20,216 nt of DNA. It comes from an uncultured virus (IMG/VR IMGVR_UViG_3300025286_000007) (Duplodnaviria > Heunggongvirae > Uroviricota > Caudoviricetes). The position numbers and the translations under genes were made by a program. The DNA is taken from the IMG/VR virus record IMGVR_UViG_3300025286_000007; one strand, 5' to 3'. Below, piece by piece: positions 2,253-15,005 of this stretch. Every line of letters starts with the position of its first letter. Position 1 is the first letter of the stretch. The notes under the pieces are model-generated. The model was given only the letters and a program-made list of their open reading frames with translations. It was not told the DNA's origin and did not search any database.

Positions 2253-2314
2253 GGTCATGTGCCAAGCGAGACGGCTCCGCTGAAACCGTACACTATAGTA
2301 CAGGATGGTGACTA

Positions 2315-2545
2315 ATGGCTAATCAGCCCAAAAACCCAGCCGATAAGTATACAGTTGAGAATGGCGAAATTGTAATGCGCTTTCCGATACTGCCTACGCT
2401 CAGTAAGAAAGGGATTTCAATGCTTCTAGCTACTACTAGGGGTGCCGAAACCTTCACCTATGAAGGCATGGAGATAAAGGCCAATGTCAATCTCTATGTT
2501 CCTATTGAGGAATGGGAAGCTAAGGCCAAGAAATCCAAGAAATAG
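2315..2545 (+). CDS. Small beta-rich protein with SKKG-S-LLATT-G motif; paralog of 3379-3579
   Basis: ORF track; aligns by eye with the 3379-3579 product. Confidence 0.85.
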   Translation: MANQPKNPADKYTVENGEIVMRFPILPTLSKKGISMLLATTRGAETFTYEGMEIKANVNLYVPIEEWEAKAKKSKK

Positions 2546-2559
2546 GCTAGCTAGGAATC

Positions 2560-2591
2560 GGGCAGGTTTGGCACACCTGCCCTATTTCTTT
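2560..2591 (+). terminator. Probable intrinsic terminator
   Basis: Stem GGGCAGGT/ACCTGCCC with a 7-nt loop, followed by TATTTCTTT, 15 nt after the stop at 2545. Confidence 0.65.
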
Positions 2592-2752
2592 GCCCAAAAT
2601 TAGACATGATAGCTTTTATATAGAGAGGGATATATTCTTATCATGTCTACCCTCCTCTCCCATAGAGGAAGGGAACAGGAAAGGAAGGAAGGGAATCAGG
2701 AATGGAAAGAGACTTGATAAGTTTATCAACTCACTTTTGTCAAGTGAGCGGT

Positions 2753-2779
2753 GGGCAGTTTTTCGACCTGCCCAGGTCG
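2753..2779 (-). ncRNA. Structured RNA element: H-type pseudoknot, copy 1
   Basis: Minus strand reads CGAC-CU-GGGCAG-GUCG-AAAAA-CUGCCC; lies 6 nt after the stop of 2786-3055. Confidence 0.75.
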
Positions 2780-2785
2780 CCAAAG

Positions 2786-3055
2786 CTACACCTCACTTTC
2801 TACAATTTCGACTGTAAGTAAGTCGCCATGATCGGATTCACAATACCAACCCAATTCCTCACGCATAGCGGTAATAGAGAAACACGACAAACCCGAAATA
2901 AATTCTACCGCTTTGCGTACCGCATCCCAGTGACTATAGCGAATCCTATCAGAAGGGTATACAACGCTAGGAGAAGAATCATTCCACGTAATTTCCCGTA
3001 CTTCGACTCGATACTTTCGATCACTAGGCACATAGGTAGGGGCGTAGGTAATCAT
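2786..3055 (-). CDS. Hypothetical protein (89 aa)
   Basis: ORF track; RBS GGGAGG (3061-3066, minus); own promoter at 3100-3127. Confidence 0.8.
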   Translation of the reverse strand: MITYAPTYVPSDRKYRVEVREITWNDSSPSVVYPSDRIRYSHWDAVRKAVEFISGLSCFSITAMREELGWYCESDHGDLLTVEIVESEV

Positions 3056-3099
3056 TCGAGCCTCCCGATAGAGTGTTCAAGGTTTCCCTTGACTTCTCT

Positions 3100-3127
3100 A
3101 TAGTACCACATTTAGAGGTATTGTCAA
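3100..3127 (-). promoter_or_regulatory. Sigma70-type promoter P5
   Basis: Minus strand: TTGACA (3127-3122), 16-bp spacer, TGn-TACTAT (3105-3100). Confidence 0.75.
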
Positions 3128-3259
3128 ATAAAACAGGACTTGATAATTACCATGTCTAAAAAAGAGGGGACACAAGGAAGGAACAGGGAATAGGGAATGG
3201 AAGGAACGGAAAGACTCTTATCAAATCTATTTATCAAATCGAAAAATGGCAAAACTAAA

Positions 3260-3286
3260 GAGCAGTTTAATGACTTGCTCAGGTCA
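3260..3286 (-). ncRNA. Structured RNA element: H-type pseudoknot, copy 2
   Basis: Minus strand reads UGAC-CU-GAGCAA-GUCA-UUAAA-CUGCUC; about 90 nt downstream of the stop of 3379-3579. Confidence 0.75.
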
Positions 3287-3378
3287 TAGAATCGGGGGCG
3301 GCATATGCTAACTCCTATGCTTTGAATTTGGTGGGGTAGCTTTCGTAGTGTACCAAGCTACTTGCTACCCCCTGTGCC

Positions 3379-3579
3379 TTAACCTTTCGCTACATGAGGA
3401 ACGTAGACGTTCAAATTGACTTGAACGTTCTTGTCTTCATGAATGAATGACTCGGTTCCCGAGGTTGTGGCAAGCAACACAGACTTGCCGGATTTCGCGG
3501 GCCGAGGCGCAATCTTCTTGACGATAACCACAAAGCCATCTTCAATGTACATCGCTTCTCTGAGTGCCTTGTTAACCAT
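3379..3579 (-). CDS. Small beta-rich protein with KSGKS-LLATT-G motif; paralog of 2315-2545
   Basis: ORF track; RBS AAGGAG (3590-3595, minus); own promoter. Confidence 0.85.
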   Translation of the reverse strand: MVNKALREAMYIEDGFVVIVKKIAPRPAKSGKSVLLATTSGTESFIHEDKNVQVNLNVYVPHVAKG

Positions 3580-3639
3580 AATTCACACGCTCCTTATTCT
3601 AAATATTTTGTCGGGAGTGGTACTTCTCCCAACATCAAT

Positions 3640-3668
3640 ATAGTAGCACAGTCGTACCCCCTTGTCAA
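3640..3668 (-). promoter_or_regulatory. Sigma70-type promoter P6
   Basis: Minus strand: TTGACA (3668-3663), 17-bp spacer, TGn-TACTAT (3645-3640). Confidence 0.8.
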
Positions 3669-3842
3669 ATTTATGACTATAGTGAAAACCAAAAAAACGG
3701 GAGTTGATAATTATTATGTCTAATATATAGAGAGAGCAGGAAAGGGAAAGGAAGGTGGAAGGAAAGGAACGTGGAAGGAAAGGAACGTGGAAGGAACGAG
3801 AGTTGATAATTCTATCAAGTCTAGTTTTTTGTCAATCCCTTT

Positions 3843-3869
3843 GAGCAGTTTATACACTTGCTCAGGTGT
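3843..3869 (-). ncRNA. Structured RNA element: H-type pseudoknot, copy 3
   Basis: Minus strand reads ACAC-CU-GAGCAA-GUGU-AUAAA-CUGCUC; lies 7 nt after the stop at 3877. Confidence 0.75.
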
Positions 3870-3876
3870 TTTATGA

Positions 3877-4221
3877 CTAGCCTAGGTTTAACCTCGCTTG
3901 GTAAATGGTTTCGTACTGGGTGGCATCAGGCCAAATTTTGCTGTTAGCGGATGAGAAGTTTACCACATAATCCCAACACTTGGCACAAATTCCATTTCCT
4001 AATCCCTCAGCATATGAGCCACAAGTTTCGCAATTTCCGTTTGAATCCGAGATTTTATCTTTGGGTAGATTCCTGACTGATGCTTCAAATTCCGCCCTAA
4101 TGATATCGTCCTGAGTCTTATCGACATTTCGATCTACTTGGTCAGCGCTATCGTTAGCTATTGCACTTTTTCCTTCGACGACGTTAGCTCGCAGGAGGGT
4201 GATGTTATCCCAAAATCCCAT
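3877..4221 (-). CDS. Zinc-finger-containing hypothetical protein (114 aa from MGFWDNI)
   Basis: CETC...CAKC motif. Start moved from 4272 to 4221 because 4272 lies almost at the predicted TSS and MGFWDNI matches the MSSFWDNI start of ORF 1245. Confidence 0.75.
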   Translation of the reverse strand: MGFWDNITLLRANVVEGKSAIANDSADQVDRNVDKTQDDIIRAEFEASVRNLPKDKISDSNGNCETCGSYAEGLGNGICAKCWDYVVNFSSANSKIWPDATQYETIYQARLNLG

Positions 4222-4285
4222 TTTGTTCACTCTCAGCCTTTCGGCTGTCCTTTGTAATGTTAGAGGTGTCATCCCCTACACAAGG

Positions 4286-4313
4286 AGTATAGCAGAATGA
4301 CATGTAGTGTCAA
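4286..4313 (-). promoter_or_regulatory. Sigma70-type promoter P7
   Basis: Minus strand: TTGACA (4313-4308), 16-bp spacer, TGn-TATACT (4291-4286). Confidence 0.75.
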
Positions 4314-4414
4314 TAGCCTCTATGAAGATTTTGGGAGTTGATAATTATTATGTCTAAATATATATAAATAAGTATATAAAATATTCTAACCGTTTCTGAC
4401 TAGGTTATTTCATT

Positions 4415-5352: not shown

Positions 5353-6768
5353 GTTTCAAATCAACCTCTCTAACTGAGCCTGTCTGATCACACAGATTAG
5401 TATATTTCTAGATGTAGTTTACTTATTTAGCTGCTGCATCCTACATCTTTGTGTTGCTCTTACTTAAACCTTCTAATAGATTTTACTAACCTGTTTAACT
5501 CTTCTGATTCCTGCAACTTCTGTAGCCTGTACTAAGCTTTTACGAATCTTTATAACTAGTTCTATAGTCTAGATTTTACGTAGTTTACTTATTACTTTAA
5601 CTTATATATATAGATAGTTAATCTCATTTCGTTTCAAGTCCAGCCCTCTCAGCACCACCACCATGCTTACTGGACATGGTGTGTCTAGTCTCTTAGCTAC
5701 TTGTCTAGCTGCTTAGTCTACACTCTCCACACCTCTTACTTATATACTCTAGTAAAATTCTGTCTATGTACATACTTATTCTCTGATCCCTGTGGTCTCT
5801 ACATCTTATCCTAGTCTGTCTCTAGTCTCTATAACTAGTTATCTAGCCTAGACTTTACTTAACTTATCTATTACCTTACCTTATATACATAGCTAGTTAA
5901 TCCTATTTCATTTCAAGTCAGTCACTCTAGCTGACATCTCTTGTACACTCTGGTCACCATGCTCCTAGACTCTCTAGCTATCTAGCTTGCTAGGCTCTAG
6001 ACTCTCTACCTCCTGTGCCTAGACTCTCTAGTGACCTCTGGCTATCTGTCTAGCTCCCACCGATCTCTGTAGTCTCTGTAGCTCGTCCTAGCCACTCTCT
6101 AGGCTATCTGTAGATAGCTCTCAGGCTCCTGTACCCTCCTGTAGCTAGTCCTACGCTGGGCTGTTCTTATCTTTACTAACTCTATTTCGGTTTCAAGTTG
6201 ACGCTCTAGACGACCATGCCTGACCACCTGACAGCTAGCCTCTGTGTCCACCTAGCTAGACAGTCAGCCTCAGTCTCTACACACTGAGACCCTGATGTCT
6301 GTGACCGTGACCCTGCTGTAGATGTACACGCCTACACCCACATCTCCTGTGTCCACTAGTCACTAGCCTACTTACTTGTAGCTGACATAGCTTAATCTCT
6401 ACAGTGTACACCAAGCTCCTAGCTCTTGTCAACTTGGCCTAGACTCGTCTTATCTTAGCTATTTCGGTTTCACTGCCCTGCCTCTCAGCAGCCTCACAGA
6501 CACCTCTACACACCACACTCTGCACTCAAGGCTCTACACTCTGTCTACATGCTCTACACACTGCCTACACACCCTACACAGCACACCCACAGCAGCCTAG
6601 CTACCTGCCTGACACCTCTACCTGACAGGCTAGTCAGCCCTCACTCTGCCAGCAGCACCTCTAGGCTAGGCTCTCTAGCTGGCCCTGACCCTCCACAGGC
6701 TCCCTGTCCACAACACCCTCTTGAAGGGGGTGGGGGTGAACTGGTTTCAAGTCAACCTCTAAAACTGA
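5353..6768. repeat. Degenerate ~278-bp-period array with a GTTTCAAGTC core
   Basis: Cores begin at 5353, 5631, 5910, 6190, 6467 and 6744 (spacings 278, 279, 280, 277, 277). Confidence 0.85.
6403..6432 (-). promoter_or_regulatory. Candidate sigma70 promoter inside the array
   Basis: Minus strand: TTGACA (6432-6427), 18-bp spacer, TACACT (6408-6403). Confidence 0.5.
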
Positions 6769-6805
6769 CTCAAGCCTGTAAATATACCCCCGTGGGTCTA
6801 GACGA

Positions 6806-6942
6806 TTAAATAACTTTAACTAGTTATAGTTTCAACTAATAATTATTTCTTTCTAACTAATAACTAACTAATTAATAATAAGTAAGTAACTAATTAAATA
6901 ACTAAAAAACTTATTCGTTTAATAATATATTATAATCTATTA
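6806..6942. other. Very AT-rich tract with TAACTAA repeats (candidate DNA-unwinding element)
   Basis: Few G/C bases; TAACTAA recurs around 6833-6905; adjacent to the array. Confidence 0.5.
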
Positions 6943-7115
6943 CGATGAAGGGGGGTGTCTTAAAAAGTTAGCTTGTTCCTTTATATAGACCCCCCGGTTA
7001 TACTATTATGTTTCCTTGTAGGTAACCATTAATCTAGGGTACTATTTACCAAGACTATTTTTTCAAAACGTCCTAGCTAAATTTTTGTAATTATAAAATA
7101 AAACCCTATTTGAAG

Positions 7116-7123
7116 AGTATAAT
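7116..7123 (+). promoter_or_regulatory. AGTATAAT -10-like promoter element
   Basis: The same octamer occurs at 7735-7742 and 15028-15035, each 30-52 nt before a gene start. Confidence 0.55.
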
Positions 7124-7152
7124 GTAGTAAGAATCTTGCGAAAGGATAGATT

Positions 7153-7742: not shown

Positions 7743-7793
7743 ATAGTAGTGCTGTTGATTCAGCATATAGCTGATCTATGTTTAGGAGATACT

Positions 7794-10700
7794 ATGTCGC
7801 GACTTACAGACATTTATAATAGTCTTATGGATGATCCAGATATCGTTCCACCAGCTAAAATATCCAAAGATGAATATGTTTTGAATATGGCTCGACAACG
7901 TATTCAACAGAGTGAAAATAATGCTGAAGCGTTGGAGATGGGTTTTGTTAAGACTAATGGTCATTTTTCTAATGGATATTCCAACAATGGTGGCTCTCAG
8001 TCTGCTGTAAATAAGCTTGCCGCTTTTGTGAACCTGCCGGAGGCTTCGCCTGATACAGATATATTATTGGAAAAGGCGAAAGAACCACAACATTTCCACG
8101 AGGATGCTTTACAATATCTTCTAGACAGGAACTATTCAAACGCAGTTATAGAGCAACTTCGTAAAGATCATCCACCTATGGCGACTTCTTCGGGTAAACC
8201 TATTCTGGAAATAAGTCTTAAGGATATAGCAAGTATTATCCCAGATAGGATGGCAGTAAGTGACGATGCACGAATAGCTGGAGAGGAGCGACCTACGGCT
8301 AAATCGCATCCAGCCATGTTTAAACCTGCGGCTAAGCCTAAGACCGCCACATCTGATGTTCCAGAGAAAGTTACATCTAAGAAAAAAGATGGGGTAAAAA
8401 GTATATTCCCAATAAAATGGGAAAGTGGTAATAAGTATAATACTGATTTGAAGCTTGGAAGCCTTGTACGAAATGAACAAGGTGACTTATTTAAAGTAAA
8501 TCGTCTCAATGGTTATAATGTAGAACTTGATGGCATTAATGAGAAGGGCCAATCCAGAGGATCAACGAGTAATATTACTATTAATGTAGACCCTTCTGTC
8601 CGTAAACAAGGAGACCCTTTCTATTATCCTCATAAAATAGGAAATATAGATAATCATAATGATTTATTAGATGTAGGAACTCAAGCTAGGGTGGATACGG
8701 ACACATCCCCTACAGAGCAGGAGTCTACTCAACCTGAAGTTACGCCTGATAAAGGGGAAGACACCGATGAAGGAATTGAGCCTCTAGATGCAGATAGTAC
8801 ACTTCCTCAAATCCAGACTTTGGAGGAGATTGCGGAACTTAATACCACTCAATTAGAGGCTGCACTGGTAGCTAAAGGGTTTGATAGAAATCAAATCGGT
8901 AAAATAGCAAAGATGAAAGGGCTTCAAACGGATGGCTTGCTTGACCAAGAGAAATATAGGCAATATTTACAGGAAACACTTGCAAAAACTGTTAAAACAG
9001 CACAAGAAGAAGCAGAAGAAGCAGTGGTAACTGAGGCTAAACCTGAATCTGCTCTTGATGCTAGATTAAAAGAGATTGACCCTGCCTATAATAAAGCAAC
9101 GGTTATAACCAGATTGAGCAGCTTGTATGGAGGTGGGTATAGACTTTCCGAGTTAGAGGGTATGTCTGATGATGAGTTAGTAGCTAGGGTTAAGATAAGT
9201 TCGGAAGATATTTCTCATAGCAGAAATGACATTGAACAGGTGGTCAGCCGACAAAAAAGTGGAGACAGGCGGCTTAGGGCTGCTGGATATACTCAAGAAA
9301 ATATAACTGAAATGTCAGATAATATGAAAAATACGCTGCTTAATCACCTTGATGAAAACCCAACTTGGAAAAGAGGCGACATTGATGCTGCCATTAAGAG
9401 AGAGGGGGTCGCTGCGGCTGCAGAGGGGGCCGCTGCGGATGCAGAGAGGGCCGCTGCGGCTGAATCATCTGCAGGGGAAAAGACACCAGCTACTATTGAA
9501 GGCCCACTTGAGCCAGAAGACCCAAAGAAACAACTGTCAGACAAGGCTAAAGAAGAGCTTTCTAGAACGATTTCTGATACTGGTTTAGAAGCTCTTTTAG
9601 GTAAACTTGGAAAAGGTAGGGAGCAACTTTTTGACCCTATGGGAACGCCCATGCTTGAAAGTAAGAAGAATGACAAAGGTAAGGTCATAAAAGGTACGTG
9701 GGTAGATAGGGATGGAAATGAATATAGTAAGATAAAAGGCAAATACATTGACTCGCAAGGAAACGAACCGAAAGATGGTGAATATGTAGGCACTGTGGCG
9801 CAAGCTCAGGACTATATAACGCATCTTAAAGAGTCAGGTCATCCACATCATGAACATTTTAGTGAAATAAGAAATATGGATATCCTTGATAAGGATGGTA
9901 AACCTACTGGAGAAAAAGTCGGGCAACATATAGACATAATGGAACCAGAGCTTGGTACTGTAATAAATAAACCACTTGTTGTAGAAACTCCTGTTGTAGA
10001 AACTCCTGTGGTTGAAACTCCTGAAGCAGATGCTGATGCAAAAAAGGCAGAAGAGTCAGGCGACACACCAGAACCAGAAGTGTTAGAAGCAGCAGAAAAT
10101 ATCTCTCCAGAGGTAGAGGCCATAGCTAAAACGCTGTTGAAAAGTGGTTTTGCAAAAAGAGTGGCTTGTGAGCGTGGGCTGACAGATAAAGATGGTAATC
10201 CTACAGAAATGGGTAAAGCCTTCTTTGAACAAATTGGGCCAATGGTTAACGAAGCAGTTGATCATTTTGAAAAACATAAAGACACGATTGCTACAAAGTT
10301 TAATAGGCGTCGTGGAATGAACTTCAGAGATAAAGAGGGTAATATTGTAGGTATAGGTAACAGTGGTACGTTCCTTAATCATCTAATAGATGACATGAAT
10401 AAGGTTGCTGTAGCGAAAGGTCTTCCTACATTAGAAAAAACGCATAATGATCGTACTGGAGAAGCTCTGACAGATAATGGAGTTCCTGTAGAGCCTAATC
10501 AAGCACCCGATCTTTCTGTAGTAAATGGAGAGATGGTTAGGAATAGACTTCTTACTAGTCGAATTGGTAATGATTTTTCGAGCGACCACGGAGAGTTTAT
10601 TGCAGGACTTGGTGGTATACAACAAATTGAACAAAGCATACTTGAAAATAAAGGAATGAATCCTGATACAGCAAAGAAAATTACCGAAGAAAAACTTAAG

Positions 10701-13700
10701 GAGGTTAAGAGTGGTATAGAATCTGATGAGATTAAGGTTGCTGACGCTGGCGAAAAAATTCATAACTCAATAAATGAAACTGTAGCAACTGATTATCCAG
10801 ACATTGCTGAAACTCCTCCAGATTATGGGAAACAGCTACCTCTGTTTGAAGATATGGGTTTTGAGCCTATGTCTACACCTGAACCTACTTCTGCGGCTGA
10901 CGCTGTGGCAAAGAAAGGAGTAAAAGCTAGGCAACGAAGAGCCAATTTGGATGAGGAAATCCATATTCCTAGTAAAGTTAGTGATCAAATAAAACCGCTT
11001 TTAGCTCATCTAGGACATGACGTAGATGCAATGACATCAAGTGATGTTATGAACACATTTAGAGAAGTCTTGACAGACCCAGATAAATTTGGTGAACTGG
11101 AGATAGCTCTTAAGGAGAATGAGGAGGTTAGGAATCAGTTCGTTCAGGCACATGTTGCAATGGAGCAAGCGGAAGAAGAAGACCCTAGACTAGCTCATGC
11201 AGGACTACCGGGTTTTGGTGCCGAGGTCGAAGATTGGGGAAAGATACCAGATAGAGCAGCAGAAGCTACACAGAAAATACACGAGAGATATAGAAGGAAA
11301 AATCTTTCACCACGAAAACGTCAGGTAGAAGACTTAAAGAACGTTATGCATGGAGACTTCCATGAACATCTAGATAATCCTGATGATATGTCAGATAAAG
11401 AAATAAAGGAGATGTGGAATAAAGAGGTACGTGATCCGAAAGCTCGGACTGCTTCCTCAGCATCTGCAGGAGCAAAGCCTACAGAAAAAGATAAACCGAA
11501 TCGTACTGCGGCTTTGGAACGATTAGCTCGATTACAGAATCCTGATTTGATTGGTGATGATGACGAGGTTCTTGATCAGGATGCAATGACCAGAGCCACT
11601 ACAAAACTTGAGAGGCATTATGATCCGTCCGTTGGCTTTACTCTTAAAGATATTACAGATGCTGTAAAAGCTCAAACTAATTTAGTAGCTAACCAAGAAG
11701 CTCAACAAAAGCAAGAAAAACAGAATAGGGCTAGAGGAGTCGATCAAATAAGGGCTGTCGCTGAGTTCGAGGACAACTTTCCAGACCCAGATAAGTGGGC
11801 TAAGGAACATGATGGTGAAAAAATGAGTCCTGAAATGGCTAAAGAACATTTTAGAGAGTTAATAGACTTTCAACATCGAAAAGAAAATTTCCAGCATTTC
11901 GACCCGAAATCCGGAGACCCAGAAAATTTTAAAGCTTTAAGAGAGCGAGTACATGAGTATGCTAATCTGAATCCTTCGGCTGCTAGAGAGATTGCCGAGG
12001 AAATTAAGTCAGCACAACGTAATGGTATTGACTTAGGGTCAGATGAATTTCTAGCTCATGCTAAAGAATTAAAGGAGACTGTGGAACGTGACGAAAGAAC
12101 CGCTTTTGCTAAGGCTAATCATAAAAATGAAAAACTTGCCCATGCCTTAGAGAATGGTAATTTCTCTAGAGGTTATGATAAAGATGGTAATGATGGGCAT
12201 CGTGGGCTAGATCATAATGGTGATCCTGAACATGATACCTCAGAGATAAAGCATGAAGATGCTAAAGCTCCATTAGTTCATGCTGTGGATGAAAATGGGT
12301 ATCCTGATGATAAATTACAACAACTAGTTAATGAAATACATGACGCTGAATTAGCTATACCTAAAGGTGATAGAGAACATCATGAAGCGGAAAGTAGTTT
12401 ACGTGCGGCCCATGAGGCAGCTAAAGTGGATGAACATAAAAAAACTACAGATGCTCATACTGCAAATACTGCTGGACGAGATCGGAACTATGATGAGAAT
12501 GACGCTAAATTTGATGCTGATATAGAGAATTCACATCAACGTCAGCGTGATGCGAATTATGCACGAGTAAGTGGTGAAGGGGACAGACAGAAAGTATTAC
12601 TAGATAATCATAAGAAGCTTATAAATGAAGCTGTTGATGCTCATGAGCGTCAGTTGGCGCAACACGATGGCAAGATAAAAAAGAAACAAGATGAATATAA
12701 TGCTTATCATCAAGATATTGATAAAGCAAATAAACAGCATAAAAAAAATGTTGGTGACGCTTCTGCAGATAGGATGAATGCTATTTATGAGGCAGAACAA
12801 AAAGCTAAAAAAGCGAGGTCTACAGCTAACGATCAACTTAATTCGATACTAGCCGAGCAGATAAAACAACATAATGAAGAAGTTGAACAGCATAACCAGC
12901 AAGGTATGGACATAGTTGTTAATGCAGACGCTAGTTTCGCTGATTTGGCAAAACAGCAGACAGGTCAACTTGCAAACTTAAGGAATAAGCTATCAAAAAC
13001 TTCGGAACAATTCTATCAGAAGCAGCAAGATGATTCGAATGTTGCTGCAGCTAGGGGGGCTAGTCCGGAGTATTTAGGTAATTTGACGCAGCAACATAAA
13101 CAAGAAGCTGCTGAATTTGATCGGGGTTCGCAGCAACAGGTAGCAGATTTACATCAGAGTCATCAAACTGAAATAGAAAAACATGCTAACAATCTTGGTC
13201 AAGAAGGTAAGGAGTGGACTCAAGCAGGAACTGATCTTCTTCTTAACCAGGCTGAAGAGAGACAGAAGTTAACAGATGATGGTCATGCTAGGATGGAACG
13301 TATAGATGCTGCCGTAGCACATACGGACGCTACAGCACGAAAAACTGAGAACGATGCTATTAATCAGTCTAGAGACATTCGTAACAAATCATTGCAAGAA
13401 GTTGCGGATGCGGCTGGACTTGAAGCTTTTATAGAAGACGATGGTGACGCTACAAGATTCGCAGATCAAATGAGACAAGAGCAAAGTTCTCATGAGACAG
13501 ACTCAGCGATTATTCGTGAGCAAATTCAAACCGACCATGGAGATTATGTTGAAAGTAAACGGCGTGGTTTTAAGAGTGAACAAGGAAAAATGTTTGCCCA
13601 AGCGACTAGGGCTGGAGATGCATCCAATGAAGAGTTTGAAAAGGAACGTGAAGGTCATATAGTACGTAGACAACGAGAAAATCTGTATGTTACTAATGAC

Positions 13701-15005
13701 TTTGAAATACTCAGAGATAAGATAGATAATTTACATGGTAAGCTTAAACGAGACGCTAAAAAGAATTTTAATGTTCAGAAGAAACGACTTGGTACAGATA
13801 AAAAAGTCTCAGATCAAGCCGCTTTAGAGAGAAAAGAGAGGGCACATGCCACATTAGACGAATATTTAAAGGATGATCCAGAGAAATTAGCGGCTATTAA
13901 AAAGAATCCTCAGCTAGGAGAGCATCAGGATAAAGTTCAGCAAGCCCATGAAGAGGCTGGCTCAGGGCCAACTGGCGAAAAAGATGCTAAGGGTGAAGAT
14001 AAGAAGCCAGAAAAAACTCGTATGGTTAAAGACCCCAAAACAGAGGAGATGAAAAAGCAGTATTGGATTCCAGGTAGAGGTAAAGGTTGGGTAGACGAAG
14101 ATACCTATAGGGCCTCTCATGGTCAGAATGCTGCTGCAGCTAAAAATAATAAACTGGTTATTTATCCTCAAGGCCACTTTGATGCAGGTCATGGACAAGA
14201 AGGTGATGAGGATTATAGGCCAATGTCACCACCAATGGCTGGACATGGTGCAAACATGTTCTCCATCCACACTCCTGATCATCCTGACGCAGGATTACAT
14301 GATGATGAATTAGATCATGAAGGTGTTATGGGCAGCCATTTAGGTAATCAGCCCGGTATAACTGATCACGAAAACTTTACAGCAAATGGCGCACCATTTG
14401 AGGTAGACCTTGATTCTGTGGGTCTACGGGGTATGGCTGAAGCTGCTGGTAAAGGTAAGGGACAGGCCCGTGATCCTGAAAGTAAAAGAGAAAAAATTGG
14501 AAGACAGTTTGGTGGAGTAGAAGCCCAACGAAGGGCAGGAACTGGAGAATTTGCTGCATATGGACAAGCAGCCAAAGCAGTTGGAAGAAAATTTACGGGT
14601 GCTTTGGATTATGTAAATAGTTTACGTGGAGAACAAGGACAACGACAATCTGCTGTTCAACAGTTTGCATCCCGAATGGGAAGTGGTGATGGAGGTGACA
14701 TAGGACAACATGTCGCAAATGCACTAAGAGGAGCTAGACAAAGAGGTAGAAAGGCACTGGGTGGAGTTTATTCCGGGGGATTCGCGCCTAAAAATGAACG
14801 CCAGGCAAAAGCAAAAGTAGAGCTATGGCGTAGACTACCAGGCTTTCTTAGAGAGATATATAGCCTAAGAAATCAAGAACATGCAAGACAACTTGATCAT
14901 ATAAGGGATATAGAAGATAGAAACGAACGAAAAAGTTCTATGGATCAATGGAGGGAATGGAGCAAAGGAATACATAGCGAGATAGAATCTAGACCAAAAA
15001 TGTAG
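7794..15005 (+). CDS. Giant (2403 aa) charged, largely helical or low-complexity protein; putative internal virion protein
   Basis: 7.2-kb ORF. Start moved to ATG 7794 (RBS AGGAG 7784-7788). E/K/D/A/Q/H-rich, one Cys seen, long coiled-coil-like stretch in the C-terminal half; no enzyme motif recognised. Confidence 0.9.
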   Translation: MSRLTDIYNSLMDDPDIVPPAKISKDEYVLNMARQRIQQSENNAEALEMGFVKTNGHFSNGYSNNGGSQSAVNKLAAFVNLPEASPDTDILLEKAKEPQHFHEDALQYLLDRNYSNAVIEQLRKDHPPMATSSGKPILEISLKDIASIIPDRMAVSDDARIAGEERPTAKSHPAMFKPAAKPKTATSDVPEKVTSKKKDGVKSIFPIKWESGNKYNTDLKLGSLVRNEQGDLFKVNRLNGYNVELDGINEKGQSRGSTSNITINVDPSVRKQGDPFYYPHKIGNIDNHNDLLDVGTQARVDTDTSPTEQESTQPEVTPDKGEDTDEGIEPLDADSTLPQIQTLEEIAELNTTQLEAALVAKGFDRNQIGKIAKMKGLQTDGLLDQEKYRQYLQETLAKTVKTAQEEAEEAVVTEAKPESALDARLKEIDPAYNKATVITRLSSLYGGGYRLSELEGMSDDELVARVKISSEDISHSRNDIEQVVSRQKSGDRRLRAAGYTQENITEMSDNMKNTLLNHLDENPTWKRGDIDAAIKREGVAAAAEGAAADAERAAAAESSAGEKTPATIEGPLEPEDPKKQLSDKAKEELSRTISDTGLEALLGKLGKGREQLFDPMGTPMLESKKNDKGKVIKGTWVDRDGNEYSKIKGKYIDSQGNEPKDGEYVGTVAQAQDYITHLKESGHPHHEHFSEIRNMDILDKDGKPTGEKVGQHIDIMEPELGTVINKPLVVETPVVETPVVETPEADADAKKAEESGDTPEPEVLEAAENISPEVEAIAKTLLKSGFAKRVACERGLTDKDGNPTEMGKAFFEQIGPMVNEAVDHFEKHKDTIATKFNRRRGMNFRDKEGNIVGIGNSGTFLNHLIDDMNKVAVAKGLPTLEKTHNDRTGEALTDNGVPVEPNQAPDLSVVNGEMVRNRLLTSRIGNDFSSDHGEFIAGLGGIQQIEQSILENKGMNPDTAKKITEEKLKEVKSGIESDEIKVADAGEKIHNSINETVATDYPDIAETPPDYGKQLPLFEDMGFEPMSTPEPTSAADAVAKKGVKARQRRANLDEEIHIPSKVSDQIKPLLAHLGHDVDAMTSSDVMNTFREVLTDPDKFGELEIALKENEEVRNQFVQAHVAMEQAEEEDPRLAHAGLPGFGAEVEDWGKIPDRAAEATQKIHERYRRKNLSPRKRQVEDLKNVMHGDFHEHLDNPDDMSDKEIKEMWNKEVRDPKARTASSASAGAKPTEKDKPNRTAALERLARLQNPDLIGDDDEVLDQDAMTRATTKLERHYDPSVGFTLKDITDAVKAQTNLVANQEAQQKQEKQNRARGVDQIRAVAEFEDNFPDPDKWAKEHDGEKMSPEMAKEHFRELIDFQHRKENFQHFDPKSGDPENFKALRERVHEYANLNPSAAREIAEEIKSAQRNGIDLGSDEFLAHAKELKETVERDERTAFAKANHKNEKLAHALENGNFSRGYDKDGNDGHRGLDHNGDPEHDTSEIKHEDAKAPLVHAVDENGYPDDKLQQLVNEIHDAELAIPKGDREHHEAESSLRAAHEAAKVDEHKKTTDAHTANTAGRDRNYDENDAKFDADIENSHQRQRDANYARVSGEGDRQKVLLDNHKKLINEAVDAHERQLAQHDGKIKKKQDEYNAYHQDIDKANKQHKKNVGDASADRMNAIYEAEQKAKKARSTANDQLNSILAEQIKQHNEEVEQHNQQGMDIVVNADASFADLAKQQTGQLANLRNKLSKTSEQFYQKQQDDSNVAAARGASPEYLGNLTQQHKQEAAEFDRGSQQQVADLHQSHQTEIEKHANNLGQEGKEWTQAGTDLLLNQAEERQKLTDDGHARMERIDAAVAHTDATARKTENDAINQSRDIRNKSLQEVADAAGLEAFIEDDGDATRFADQMRQEQSSHETDSAIIREQIQTDHGDYVESKRRGFKSEQGKMFAQATRAGDASNEEFEKEREGHIVRRQRENLYVTNDFEILRDKIDNLHGKLKRDAKKNFNVQKKRLGTDKKVSDQAALERKERAHATLDEYLKDDPEKLAAIKKNPQLGEHQDKVQQAHEEAGSGPTGEKDAKGEDKKPEKTRMVKDPKTEEMKKQYWIPGRGKGWVDEDTYRASHGQNAAAAKNNKLVIYPQGHFDAGHGQEGDEDYRPMSPPMAGHGANMFSIHTPDHPDAGLHDDELDHEGVMGSHLGNQPGITDHENFTANGAPFEVDLDSVGLRGMAEAAGKGKGQARDPESKREKIGRQFGGVEAQRRAGTGEFAAYGQAAKAVGRKFTGALDYVNSLRGEQGQRQSAVQQFASRMGSGDGGDIGQHVANALRGARQRGRKALGGVYSGGFAPKNERQAKAKVELWRRLPGFLREIYSLRNQEHARQLDHIRDIEDRNERKSSMDQWREWSKGIHSEIESRPKM
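9401..9463 (+). repeat. 21-bp in-frame tandem repeat x3 (EGxAAxA)
   Basis: AGAGGGGGYCGCTGCGGMTGC-like units at 9401, 9422 and 9443. Confidence 0.9.
9978..10022 (+). repeat. 15-bp in-frame tandem repeat x3 (VVETP)
   Basis: GTTGTAGAAACTCCT twice, then GTGGTTGAAACTCCT. Confidence 0.9.

Follow-up and report, generated by a model that had tools for sequence, protein, structure and literature searches.

A widespread coremin-like pseudoknot behind genes in phages, mobile elements and certain bacteria

The closest known relative of the RNA element reported here is coremin (xrRNA-C, with its Watson-Crick variant xrRNA-WCC), which is found in beny-, cucumo- and other eukaryotic RNA viruses, plant viruses included, and which we compare on the basis of three papers. 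According to these, coremin has a core of 20 nucleotides (nt; PMC10520033) that starts with a hairpin of 3–5 base pairs (bp), in which pairing rather than sequence counts and which is closed by a C-G (or U-A) pair, with a G-C pair killing the function (PMC6546385). Its loop 1 has a consensus of 4 nt (YGAD) or 6 nt (YGNNAD), greater lengths are tolerated as well and one working octaloop is off consensus (PMC10520033), and the linker has tolerant first bases, then an essential AAA followed by an essential CU, with insertions accepted only at the 5' end (PMC6546385). Directly behind the linker another hairpin with at least 4 bp is obligatory for resistance against Xrn1, and coremin causes Xrn1 to stall, acts as a block to scanning ribosomes and promotes -1 frameshifting (PMC6546385, PMC10520033, PMC10321173). 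In xrRNA-WCC a 3-bp stem connects loop and linker, and hairpin 2 is dispensable for the effect of this variant on ribosomes (PMC10321173). Here we describe a 27-nt H-type pseudoknot of similar design that is present in three copies in a 20,216-nt stretch of DNA from an uncultured virus of the Caudoviricetes (IMG/VR IMGVR_UViG_3300025286_000007; this whole stretch is referred to as the window), and we show that these three repeats are members of a very large family that is uncatalogued and occurs in phages, in mobile elements of other kinds and in some bacteria.

All three copies are located on the minus strand, copy 1 at 3843–3869 (ACAC-CU-GAGCAA-GUGU-AUAAA-CUGCUC), copy 2 at 3260–3286 (UGAC-CU-GAGCAA-GUCA-UUAAA-CUGCUC) and copy 3 at 2753–2779 (CGAC-CU-GGGCAG-GUCG-AAAAA-CUGCCC), exactly where and as the initial annotation of the window had described them, and they score 41.1, 42.7 and 38.8 bits with our covariance model R1 (L007 3771-3808, 3188-3225 and 2681-2718). 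Their consensus nnnC-CU-GRGCAW-Gnnn-nnAAA-CUGCYC gives a fold with a stem 1 of 3–4 bp, CU as loop 1, a stem 2 of 5 bp (GRGCA/UGCYC) and nnAAA as loop 3. The degenerate pattern CCTGRGCARGTNNNNAAACTGCYC matches three times in the window and not once in 100 shuffles. Stem 1 is distinct in each copy with the pairing being kept (ACAC/GUGU, UGAC/GUCA, CGAC/GUCG), and stem 2 switches between GAGCA/UGCUC and GGGCA/UGCCC, again without losing a pair.

Both stems covary throughout the family. In an alignment of 147 sequences 96.0% of the pair cells were paired compared to 79.7% in shuffles, with 0/500 shuffles reaching the observed value, and sliding the partners by 1–3 columns reduced the paired fraction to 29–39%. 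Double changes were counted 57–66 times at each of three stem-1 pairs, and the stem-2 pair 13-31 was A-U in 102 sequences, G-C in 41, G-U in two and something else in two. The closing pair of stem 1 is C-G in 147/147 sequences and was fixed by the search pattern, as were most of the 16 invariant columns, including the AAA and CU, while columns 22–23 are variable. Among 144 instances stem 1 had all four pairs in 119 and three of four in 25, using 58 different stem sequences, and the one stem-2 position left free by the pattern was A-U 129 times, G-C 14 times, G-U once and never A-C. A covariance model that scores only stem 1 as pairs was run on 73 loci (1.03 Mb) and gave 172 matches at E ≤ 10, from which 48 listed copies, all of them non-exact, were examined. 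These contain compensated versions of stem 2 (GGGUA/UACCC, GGACA/UGUCC, GGUCA/UGACC, AAGCA/UGCUU and AGGCA/UGCCU) as well as wobble versions (GAGUA/UGCUC with U-G, GAGCA/UGCUU with G-U), showing compensated changes at three of the four stem-2 pairs other than 13-31, none of which the model scores as a pair. Loop 3 is 5–8 nt long in the listed full-length copies and always ends with AAA; two of the 48 have G-C as closing pair of stem 1 (L336), two carry an extra hairpin in loop 2, and eight belong to a variant class with AGGCUC as 3' strand (AG instead of CU). On the opposite strand the U-G and G-U pairs would turn into A-C mismatches, and they thus fit the gene strand only, in line with the strand that had been assigned initially. 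Single copies folded with nested pairs yield just one of the stems at a time, the z-scores being modest (-1.1 to -2.7), and the case for the knot therefore rests on this covariation. We conclude that the element is an H-type pseudoknot in RNA of the transcribed strand, and the interleaved covarying stems first recognised in three copies have been upheld in hundreds of sequences.

Placed next to coremin, the phage element shares the short 5' hairpin with a covarying stem, the C-G pair closing the loop and the pyrimidine as first loop base, followed by two tolerant linker bases, AAA and CU, linker insertions at the 5' end only, and a loop that pairs with the sequence after AAA. Both also occur as tandem copies and are usually positioned just behind an open reading frame (ORF), and the majority consensus of the phage element, GUCC..GA....GAC...AAACU, can be aligned with the coremin 20-mer (PMC10520033), with GUCC, GA, GAC and nnnAAACU in identical order and with free and fixed positions distributed alike. 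By these comparisons the phage core appears to match the essential positions of the coremin motif. The differences concern the loop, which is 8 nt long in the phage element (CUGRGCAW) and has U as second base instead of the G in YGAD and YGNNAD, with a pyrimidine as first base and, at its end, A followed mostly by A or U; stem 2, which consists of five covarying Watson-Crick pairs compared to three pairs in xrRNA-WCC; and the hosts, being DNA phages, mobile elements and bacteria instead of eukaryotic RNA viruses. Coremin stalls Xrn1, and the natural enzyme facing the phage element would have to be a different one. A coremin-type hairpin of at least 4 bp starting 0–3 nt past the knot was not enriched (33/256 compared to 35, 39 and 32/256 in three controls). 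The phage element therefore seems to be a relative of coremin in its design and not a member of this class passing every test.

Two other groups of small H-type pseudoknots can be compared. The luteovirus-type knots (beet western yellows virus, BWYV, and pea enation mosaic virus, PEMV), which stimulate -1 frameshifting, also have about 27–28 nt, a loop 1 of 1–2 nt and an A-rich loop 3, which likely lies in the minor groove of stem 1 in both cases, and both kinds of knot stand 5–8 nt past the A-site codon. Different from these, the phage element has a stop codon in front, a longer stem 2, no overlapping frame and no slippery heptamer (XXXYYYZ ending 4–10 nt before stem 1 in 7/256 compared to 6/256 in the control, and thus not enriched). 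The leader knot of T2/T4 gene 32 is likewise a small H-type pseudoknot in a phage messenger RNA (mRNA). It shares no sequence with the element described here and is a single copy at the 5' end of one leader, where it nucleates the binding of its own protein, in contrast to multiple copies behind many unrelated genes.

In order to see how far the family extends we used the pattern CCTGRGCANGNNNNNAAACTGCYC and found at least 133 stretches from IMG/VR viral contigs and at least 119 stretches from prokaryote genomes belonging to very many phyla, so that the search of phage metagenomes recommended in the initial annotation did yield a family. By our arithmetic the chance expectation for CCTGRGCANGNNNNNAAACTGCYC could be tens of matches in 596 Gb; among the matches listed for the genome set 8/121 resemble chance, and the three free pairs of stem 1 are all formed in 74/121 and two of three in 39/121. 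BLAST searches with one copy identified the element in cultured phages, among others in the crAss-like phages cr7_1 and cr124_1, Rhizobium phage RHph_TM30, the Lactobacillus phages phig1e, KC5a and Lj771, the Lentibacter phages ICBM1-3, Roseobacter phage SIO1, Celeribacter phage P12053L, the cyanophages S-RIM4 and S-H35, the E. coli phages flopper and PO103-1 and Staphylococcus phage StB12, and members of the family were also found in Salmonella phages. Five cultured phages and five bacterial genomes that were scanned completely contain one or two copies each, and uncultured phages can carry many more (at least eight copies within 20 kb in L317 and at least six in L265). The bacterial copies L165, L192, L234 and L248 follow genes as usually found on plasmids and integrative elements (DUF7249, DUF2958 and DUF3768, and beside Replic_Relax), and the family is therefore not confined to phages. 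In phage flopper the single knot lies inside a 1.2-kb stretch without annotated gene (L341 1645-2866), which also contains a long-arm sequence resembling a transfer RNA (tRNA) about 220 nt downstream of the knot; a BLAST search of the flopper element against complete E. coli genomes gave no match.

No family of Rfam 15, which covers preQ1-I, DUF805, gene-32-like and ribozyme families, was detected at the element, neither in the whole window (E ≤ 1) nor in 14 loci at E ≤ 10 or 20 loci at E ≤ 1, and the lead towards the DUF805 motifs given in the initial annotation thereby came to nothing. We also found no paper about the element in phages or prokaryotes in the literature reached, with subscription journals and supplements being outside this coverage. 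It may be listed without a function among the 10,006 candidate viral RNAs of PMC10690425, and neither phages nor coremin are mentioned in the accessible part of PMC12397905. The finding is real and far larger than three repeats, namely a widespread, uncatalogued, coremin-like pseudoknot at gene ends.

The most prominent feature of its position is the distance to the stop codon in front. When stops closing frames of 30 or more codons were counted as ORF ends (N = 258), only 11 of them were located 0, 1, 2, 3 or 4 nt before stem 1 (1, 2, 5, 1 and 2 cases), followed by a sharp rise to 47 at 5 nt and 28 at 6 nt and then 13, 15, 11, 9 and 6 at 7, 8, 9, 10 and 11 nt. Stop triplets in the other frames are evenly distributed across this interval, indicating that the gap at 0–4 nt reflects real ends of translation and not the sequence as such, and the spacers between stop and stem 1 are not conserved. 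The distance from the knot to the next start codon is broad (19–40 nt, with at most eight cases per value). With crude ORF calls a co-oriented ORF ends within 30 nt upstream in 102/158 copies and a co-oriented start follows within 100 nt downstream in 91/158; 45/158 have only the upstream ORF and 34/158 only the downstream gene, many of the latter being bacterial loci that have a tiny upstream ORF. The edge of the ribosomal helicase is about 11 nt away from the first base of the P site. From this geometry, 5 nt past a stop codon in the A site is the point from which a structure needs no melting. The element is thus as near to the upstream stop as a terminating ribosome allows (5–6 nt), and given this geometry the knot can stay folded during translation of the upstream gene.

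In the window the stem 1 of copy 1 begins 7 nt past the TAG stop of ORF 3877–4272 and that of copy 3 begins 6 nt past the TAG stop of ORF 2786–3055, with copy 2 being an exception in its spacing as it begins 92 nt past the stop of ORF 3379–3579. These agree with the distances reported initially (7, 6 and about 90 nt); the placement at 3' ends given there does not extend to all copies of the complete record. The window is part of a viral record of 40,478 nt (G000; about 52% complete by CheckV), the DNA of which is present in marine metagenome runs, with no RNA run being listed for positions 2300–4400 of the window, and G000 carries two more copies on its plus strand, at 8943-8969 (stem 1 AGAC/GUCU) and 14771-14798 (stem 1 CUGUC/GACAG). 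Both are found 27–32 nt before start codons and 22–28 nt past the preceding stops, about 20 nt downstream of the identical 15-nt, -10-like box GTTAGTATAATAGAA. This box occurs exactly only twice in the record (G000 8911-8925 and 14739-14753; L006), with TTACAA or TAGACA 17–19 nt upstream of the TATAAT within it, and both boxes are likely promoters that place the knot at the transcript 5' end, so that on transcripts starting from them the plus-strand knots would be 5' leaders. The element in G000 is therefore not restricted to 3' ends. What is kept is the orientation, as 5/5 copies in G000 match the direction of the flanking genes, in agreement with the non-random orientation expected at first.

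A particular arrangement was observed in 30 bacterial loci of many phyla, mostly metagenome-assembled genomes, in which a conserved micro-ORF with a strong Shine-Dalgarno sequence terminates inside the knot (L146, L147, L153, L154, L156, L157, L163, L164, L169, L170, L173, L190, L193, L194, L196, L200, L205, L208, L212-L214, L221, L227, L235, L237, L240-L242, L253 and L255). The encoded peptide, M(K/T)RFM(V/I)PR(V/T)AHC(K/S)(E/D)GC..., has about 20–29 amino acids (aa) and is read in a single frame throughout, which ends at the TGA of CC-TGA-GCA, at CA-TGA or at a TAA in loop 3. It belongs to no Pfam family, and our literature search found no paper on it. In 14 of these loci the flanks were examined, and several continue with a hairpin and U-run resembling an intrinsic terminator. 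Neighbouring genes encode Rrf2 regulators (three), Fur plus rubrerythrin, and a cysteine desulfurase, and the micro-ORF may serve iron-sulfur or iron loci as a leader that is sensed by the ribosome. In one phage lineage (L022, L095, L110-L112, L125, L135) a conserved GGGGAGUCGCAG...GGGUCGCUACCCGAAGGAU segment is located about 45 nt upstream of the knot and the same gene (MFEY.VK...) begins about 20 nt past it; segment and knot possibly form a larger composite leader.

Downstream of the knot the neighbours are of several kinds. A tRNA on the same strand begins 4–14 nt past the knot in 22/261 copies, compared to none on the opposite strand and one upstream, and one additional downstream tRNA was identified by Rfam (L025). 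Type III hammerhead ribozymes start with their stem III 0–4 nt past the knot in 5/261 copies (L009 at 330-388 with 32 bits in Rfam, L023, L148, L178 and L182), with their predicted cleavage 6–14 nt past it, and in L030 a DUF2800 RNA (RF02960, 160 bits, 285-445) begins 1 nt past the knot. A U-tract follows directly in 23/256 compared to 3/256 and 0/256 at control positions. Together tRNA, hammerhead and U-tract neighbours account for 51/256, or about one in five, including the Rfam tRNA of L025. A ribosome-binding site plus start codon is found within 50 nt of the knot in 58/261. In addition there are convergent gene pairs in which the knot makes up practically the whole gap (L165, L234, L243, L248, L252, L260 and L298), the upstream gene having Pfam support in L165, L234, L248 and L260 and the opposing gene in L165 (Replic_Relax); an opposing gene with Pfam support is also present in L183 (HTH_3, at 50 nt). 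ACC (32/261) and ACCA (15/261) past the knot are enriched. A mimic of the tRNA acceptor arm or substrate of ribonuclease (RNase) P was considered and dropped as the main reading, since the copies with ACCA belong for the most part to a single related group having a tRNA-Asp downstream, and the five G000 copies are mostly without it.

From this context we tentatively favour a role of the knot as a shield or end-cap for the 3' end of the upstream message, and regard it as the likeliest single reading, at somewhat less than even odds. The knot would stay folded beside the terminating ribosome, and a short way behind it the RNA would be cut or would end, be it through RNase P at a tRNA, a hammerhead, an endonuclease or at a U-tract. 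With the CU and AAA loops probably bracing it from within the helix grooves, the compact knot would then be left with a tail of 4–14 nt and would stop 3'→5' exonucleases before they arrive at the stop codon. In the window each small minus-strand gene would become a unit of its own, consisting of promoter, gene and cap. Such a role accounts for the dependence on an ORF in front, for neighbours such as tRNA, hammerhead and U-tract and for the convergent gaps; among the functions suggested in the initial annotation it is the 3'-end protector that the context favours (stop anchoring, makers of a 3' end in about 20% and convergent gaps), the general non-canonical terminator has become unlikely, and towards a protein-binding tag the evidence is neutral.

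Similar tasks are known from other RNAs. Repetitive extragenic palindromic (REP) elements and similar stabiliser hairpins follow stop codons and are thought to stop 3' exonucleases and to set the stability of the upstream cistron. They have the position of a structured RNA after the stop in common with the phage element, with REP and similar elements being plain hairpins of a few genera and the phage element being a pseudoknot, the single conserved core of which recurs in many phyla and in the phages infecting them. The 3' end of MALAT1 and MEN-beta is formed by a triple helix followed by a tRNA-like structure that is cut by RNase P. The likeness is a protective tertiary fold, a few bases and then an RNase P site, as in the 22–23 phage copies with real tRNAs. 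MALAT1 is a eukaryotic nuclear long non-coding RNA with a U-rich triple helix around an A-rich tail, and it is not related in sequence or fold.

Several points speak against a 3' shield. Coremin, as the sole look-alike studied by experiment, blocks movers in 5'→3' direction (Xrn1 and scanning ribosomes), and no block from the 3' side is described in the accessible parts of PMC6546385, PMC10520033 and PMC10321173. Any stable hairpin could stop 3' exonucleases, leaving it unexplained why one exact fold is used across phyla. The two plus-strand copies of G000 behind the -10-like box look like 5' leaders, the knot in L090 and L091 begins 7 nt past a TATAAT box and is thus also leader-like, and in StB12 (Staphylococcus) and KC5a (Lactobacillus) the single copy is located ahead of the scaffold and major head genes. 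In the 30 bacterial loci the micro-ORF ends inside the knot with an ordinary terminator often coming next, and the asymmetry between copies with upstream ORF only (45) and downstream gene only (34 of 158) is mild.

Part of these observations would be accounted for by the main rival, a possible but less likely coremin-like one-way barrier, in which the knot blocks 5'→3' machines on the RNA, such as RNase J-type exonucleases, RNase E scanning from the 5' end and sliding or read-through ribosomes, and thereby insulates the next cistron, tRNA or ribozyme. It is supported by the position-by-position match with the coremin requirements and by what coremin does to Xrn1, ribosomes and reading frames, as far as these are given in the parts of the papers accessible to us, it accounts for the strict conservation of a special fold, and it agrees with ORFs staying at least 5 nt away, as expected of a fold that ribosomes can hardly melt, and with copies just behind promoters or ahead of the scaffold and major, highly expressed head genes. 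On the other hand, the second hairpin that is obligatory for coremin is absent (33/256 compared to 35, 39 and 32), and among its carriers are phages of E. coli and Salmonella, hosts that are not known to possess a 5'→3' exonuclease. Cleavage by a hammerhead or RNase P would also part the knot from the RNA it should protect, and in the convergent-gene and U-tract cases there is nothing downstream to protect.

Shield and barrier each fit the larger part of the data and can be combined. Coremin-type knots might represent a universal, protein-free full stop in phages, plasmids, some bacteria and eukaryotic RNA viruses, acting in both directions at prokaryotic cistron boundaries with the 5' side directed against the ribosome and 5'→3' nucleases and the 3' side against exonucleases; we regard this as a speculative idea with a minor chance of being correct. 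If it were true, each gene, tRNA and ribozyme on a polycistronic RNA would be an independently stable unit.

Unlikely in our opinion is a purely translational function, with the knot, once a stop codon occupies the A site, abutting the mRNA entry channel and holding ribosomes after termination or during read-through, which would uncouple neighbouring cistrons and keep ribosomes off the structured RNAs downstream. The sharp pile-up at 5–6 nt (75 of the 129 ORF ends within 5–11 nt) next to a loose spacing to the following start would fit well, as would the apparent dependence on an ORF in front and not on a gene downstream, the conserved micro-ORF running into the knot in 30 bacterial loci and the dispensable hairpin 2 in the ribosome effect of Watson-Crick coremin variants (accessible part of PMC10321173). 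Genome compaction alone would nevertheless give a minimal spacing for any element that has to stay folded, in 56/158 copies no ORF ends within 30 nt, and a benefit in convergent gaps is hard to see.

Even less probable is a binding tag or sensor, the loops and stem-2 sequence of which would be read by a widely conserved protein or a small ligand. For an element with a structural role alone, the sequence is very strongly conserved (16 invariant columns, mostly imposed by the pattern), the topology resembles small ligand-binding knots such as preQ1-I, and bacterial copies are found beside Rrf2, Fur, rubrerythrin and cysteine desulfurase genes. Against it, there is no expression platform, the ribosome-binding site lies outside the knot and the sequel varies between tRNA, ribozyme, promoter and convergent gene, no Rfam riboswitch family matches, and the hosts span most bacterial phyla, so that the binding partner would have to be nearly universal. 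A riboswitch of the preQ1 type in particular was rejected, having neither an Rfam match nor an expression platform.

A non-canonical transcription terminator or pause signal is very improbable. The U-tracts in 23/256 copies (3 and 0 in the controls) define a subset in which stem 2 and U-tract resemble an intrinsic terminator, and copies 1–3 of the window have no other terminator nearby and are followed by promoter-like sites. As 233/256 copies are without U-tract, this resemblance is limited to the subset and does not extend to the family as a whole, and tRNAs at 4–14 nt, hammerheads at 0–4 nt and ribosome-binding sites plus starts at 19–40 nt argue against a general terminator, because these co-oriented RNAs and ribosome-binding sites follow at once and leave no room for a new promoter. 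Of hardly any probability, finally, is a DNA-level site (a boundary of cassettes or a site of recombination in folded single-stranded DNA) or a recoding element that stimulates stop read-through or frameshifting, for which one could quote the repeated module around small genes that includes the window knot, covarying stems that fit a DNA hairpin too and a distance of 5–8 nt past the stop that is classical for recoding, but which is largely refuted by wobble pairs that become A-C mismatches on the other strand, by the ORF-end spacing (a DNA site has no need to hold real ORF ends at least 5 nt off while chance stops occur at 0–4 nt) and by the heptamer counts (7/256 compared to 6/256), with a tRNA or ribozyme often being next instead of an extended frame.

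If the function is confirmed, be it the 3' shield that we prefer or one of the others, the knot would count as one of the small structured RNAs that are most widespread in phages and mobile elements. It would link the punctuation of bacterial mRNA with the exonuclease-resistant RNAs of eukaryotic viruses, provide a sequence-defined marker for the ends of phage messages that aids annotation and operon maps, and might be used as a 27-nt host-independent part in order to stabilise or insulate genes in synthetic constructs. The 5-nt rule behind stops is in addition a natural measure of how closely a folded RNA can approach the terminating ribosome.

The three minus-strand ORFs in front of the window copies, encoding 131 aa (3877–4272, copy 1), 66 aa (3379–3579, copy 2) and 89 aa (2786–3055, copy 3), belong to no Pfam or PHROG family. 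Each of these small genes has its own strong sigma-70-like promoter upstream and a knot downstream. By consensus match these putative minus-strand promoters are TTGACA-16-TATACT (4286–4313, 11/12) before ORF 3877–4272, TTGACA-17-TACTAT with TG (3640–3668) before ORF 3379–3579 and TTGACA-16-TACTAT with TG (3100–3127) before ORF 2786–3055, and a further promoter-like site, TTGACA-18-AATTAT (3806–3835, minus strand), starts 8 nt past copy 1. A terminator scan found no hairpin plus U-tract adjoining the three genes on the minus strand, as had been noted initially. Copy 2 is followed by a U-rich stretch, and a boxA likeness of the sequence UGCUCUUUA after this copy was dropped since this flank is not conserved in the family. 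Copy 2 is also overlapped by a minus-strand mini-ORF of six codons (3284–3304, ATG CCG CCC CCG ATT CTA TGA, MPPPIL) with AGGAG 7 nt upstream, the TGA stop of which supplies the three bases that open stem 1. Three prolines in a row, as in this peptide, are known to stall ribosomes.

Between the small genes a repeated module can be recognised on the minus strand (2650–2750, 3130–3260, 3690–3835 and 4330–4357). After the knot it consists of a TTGACA/TTGATA box with TTGATA/TATCAA repeats, a CU-rich tract of 40–90 nt (reading as GGAA repeats on the plus strand, partly as a 16-nt tandem), a TAGACAT..TAATTATCAA box that is present in three copies, two of them identical, and the gene promoter. From its arrangement this module looks like shuffled regulatory cassettes.

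The phage of record G000 is novel. In a megablast search the complete window matched no cultured phage, and most G000 proteins belong to no Pfam or PHROG family, including a 2418-aa ORF (window 7749–15005, plus strand) and the five further ORFs following it. The phage encodes a major head protein, a protease, an HNH endonuclease, a Mom-like protein and a DUF932 protein. A region of about 1.8 kb in the window (5373–7150) has hardly any long ORFs and shows numerous direct repeats, among them 147-nt units 279 nt apart, six CTAGACTCTCTAGCT-like boxes and three GCCTAGACTTTACTTAACTTATCTATT-like boxes, and may be an origin or a promoter bank.

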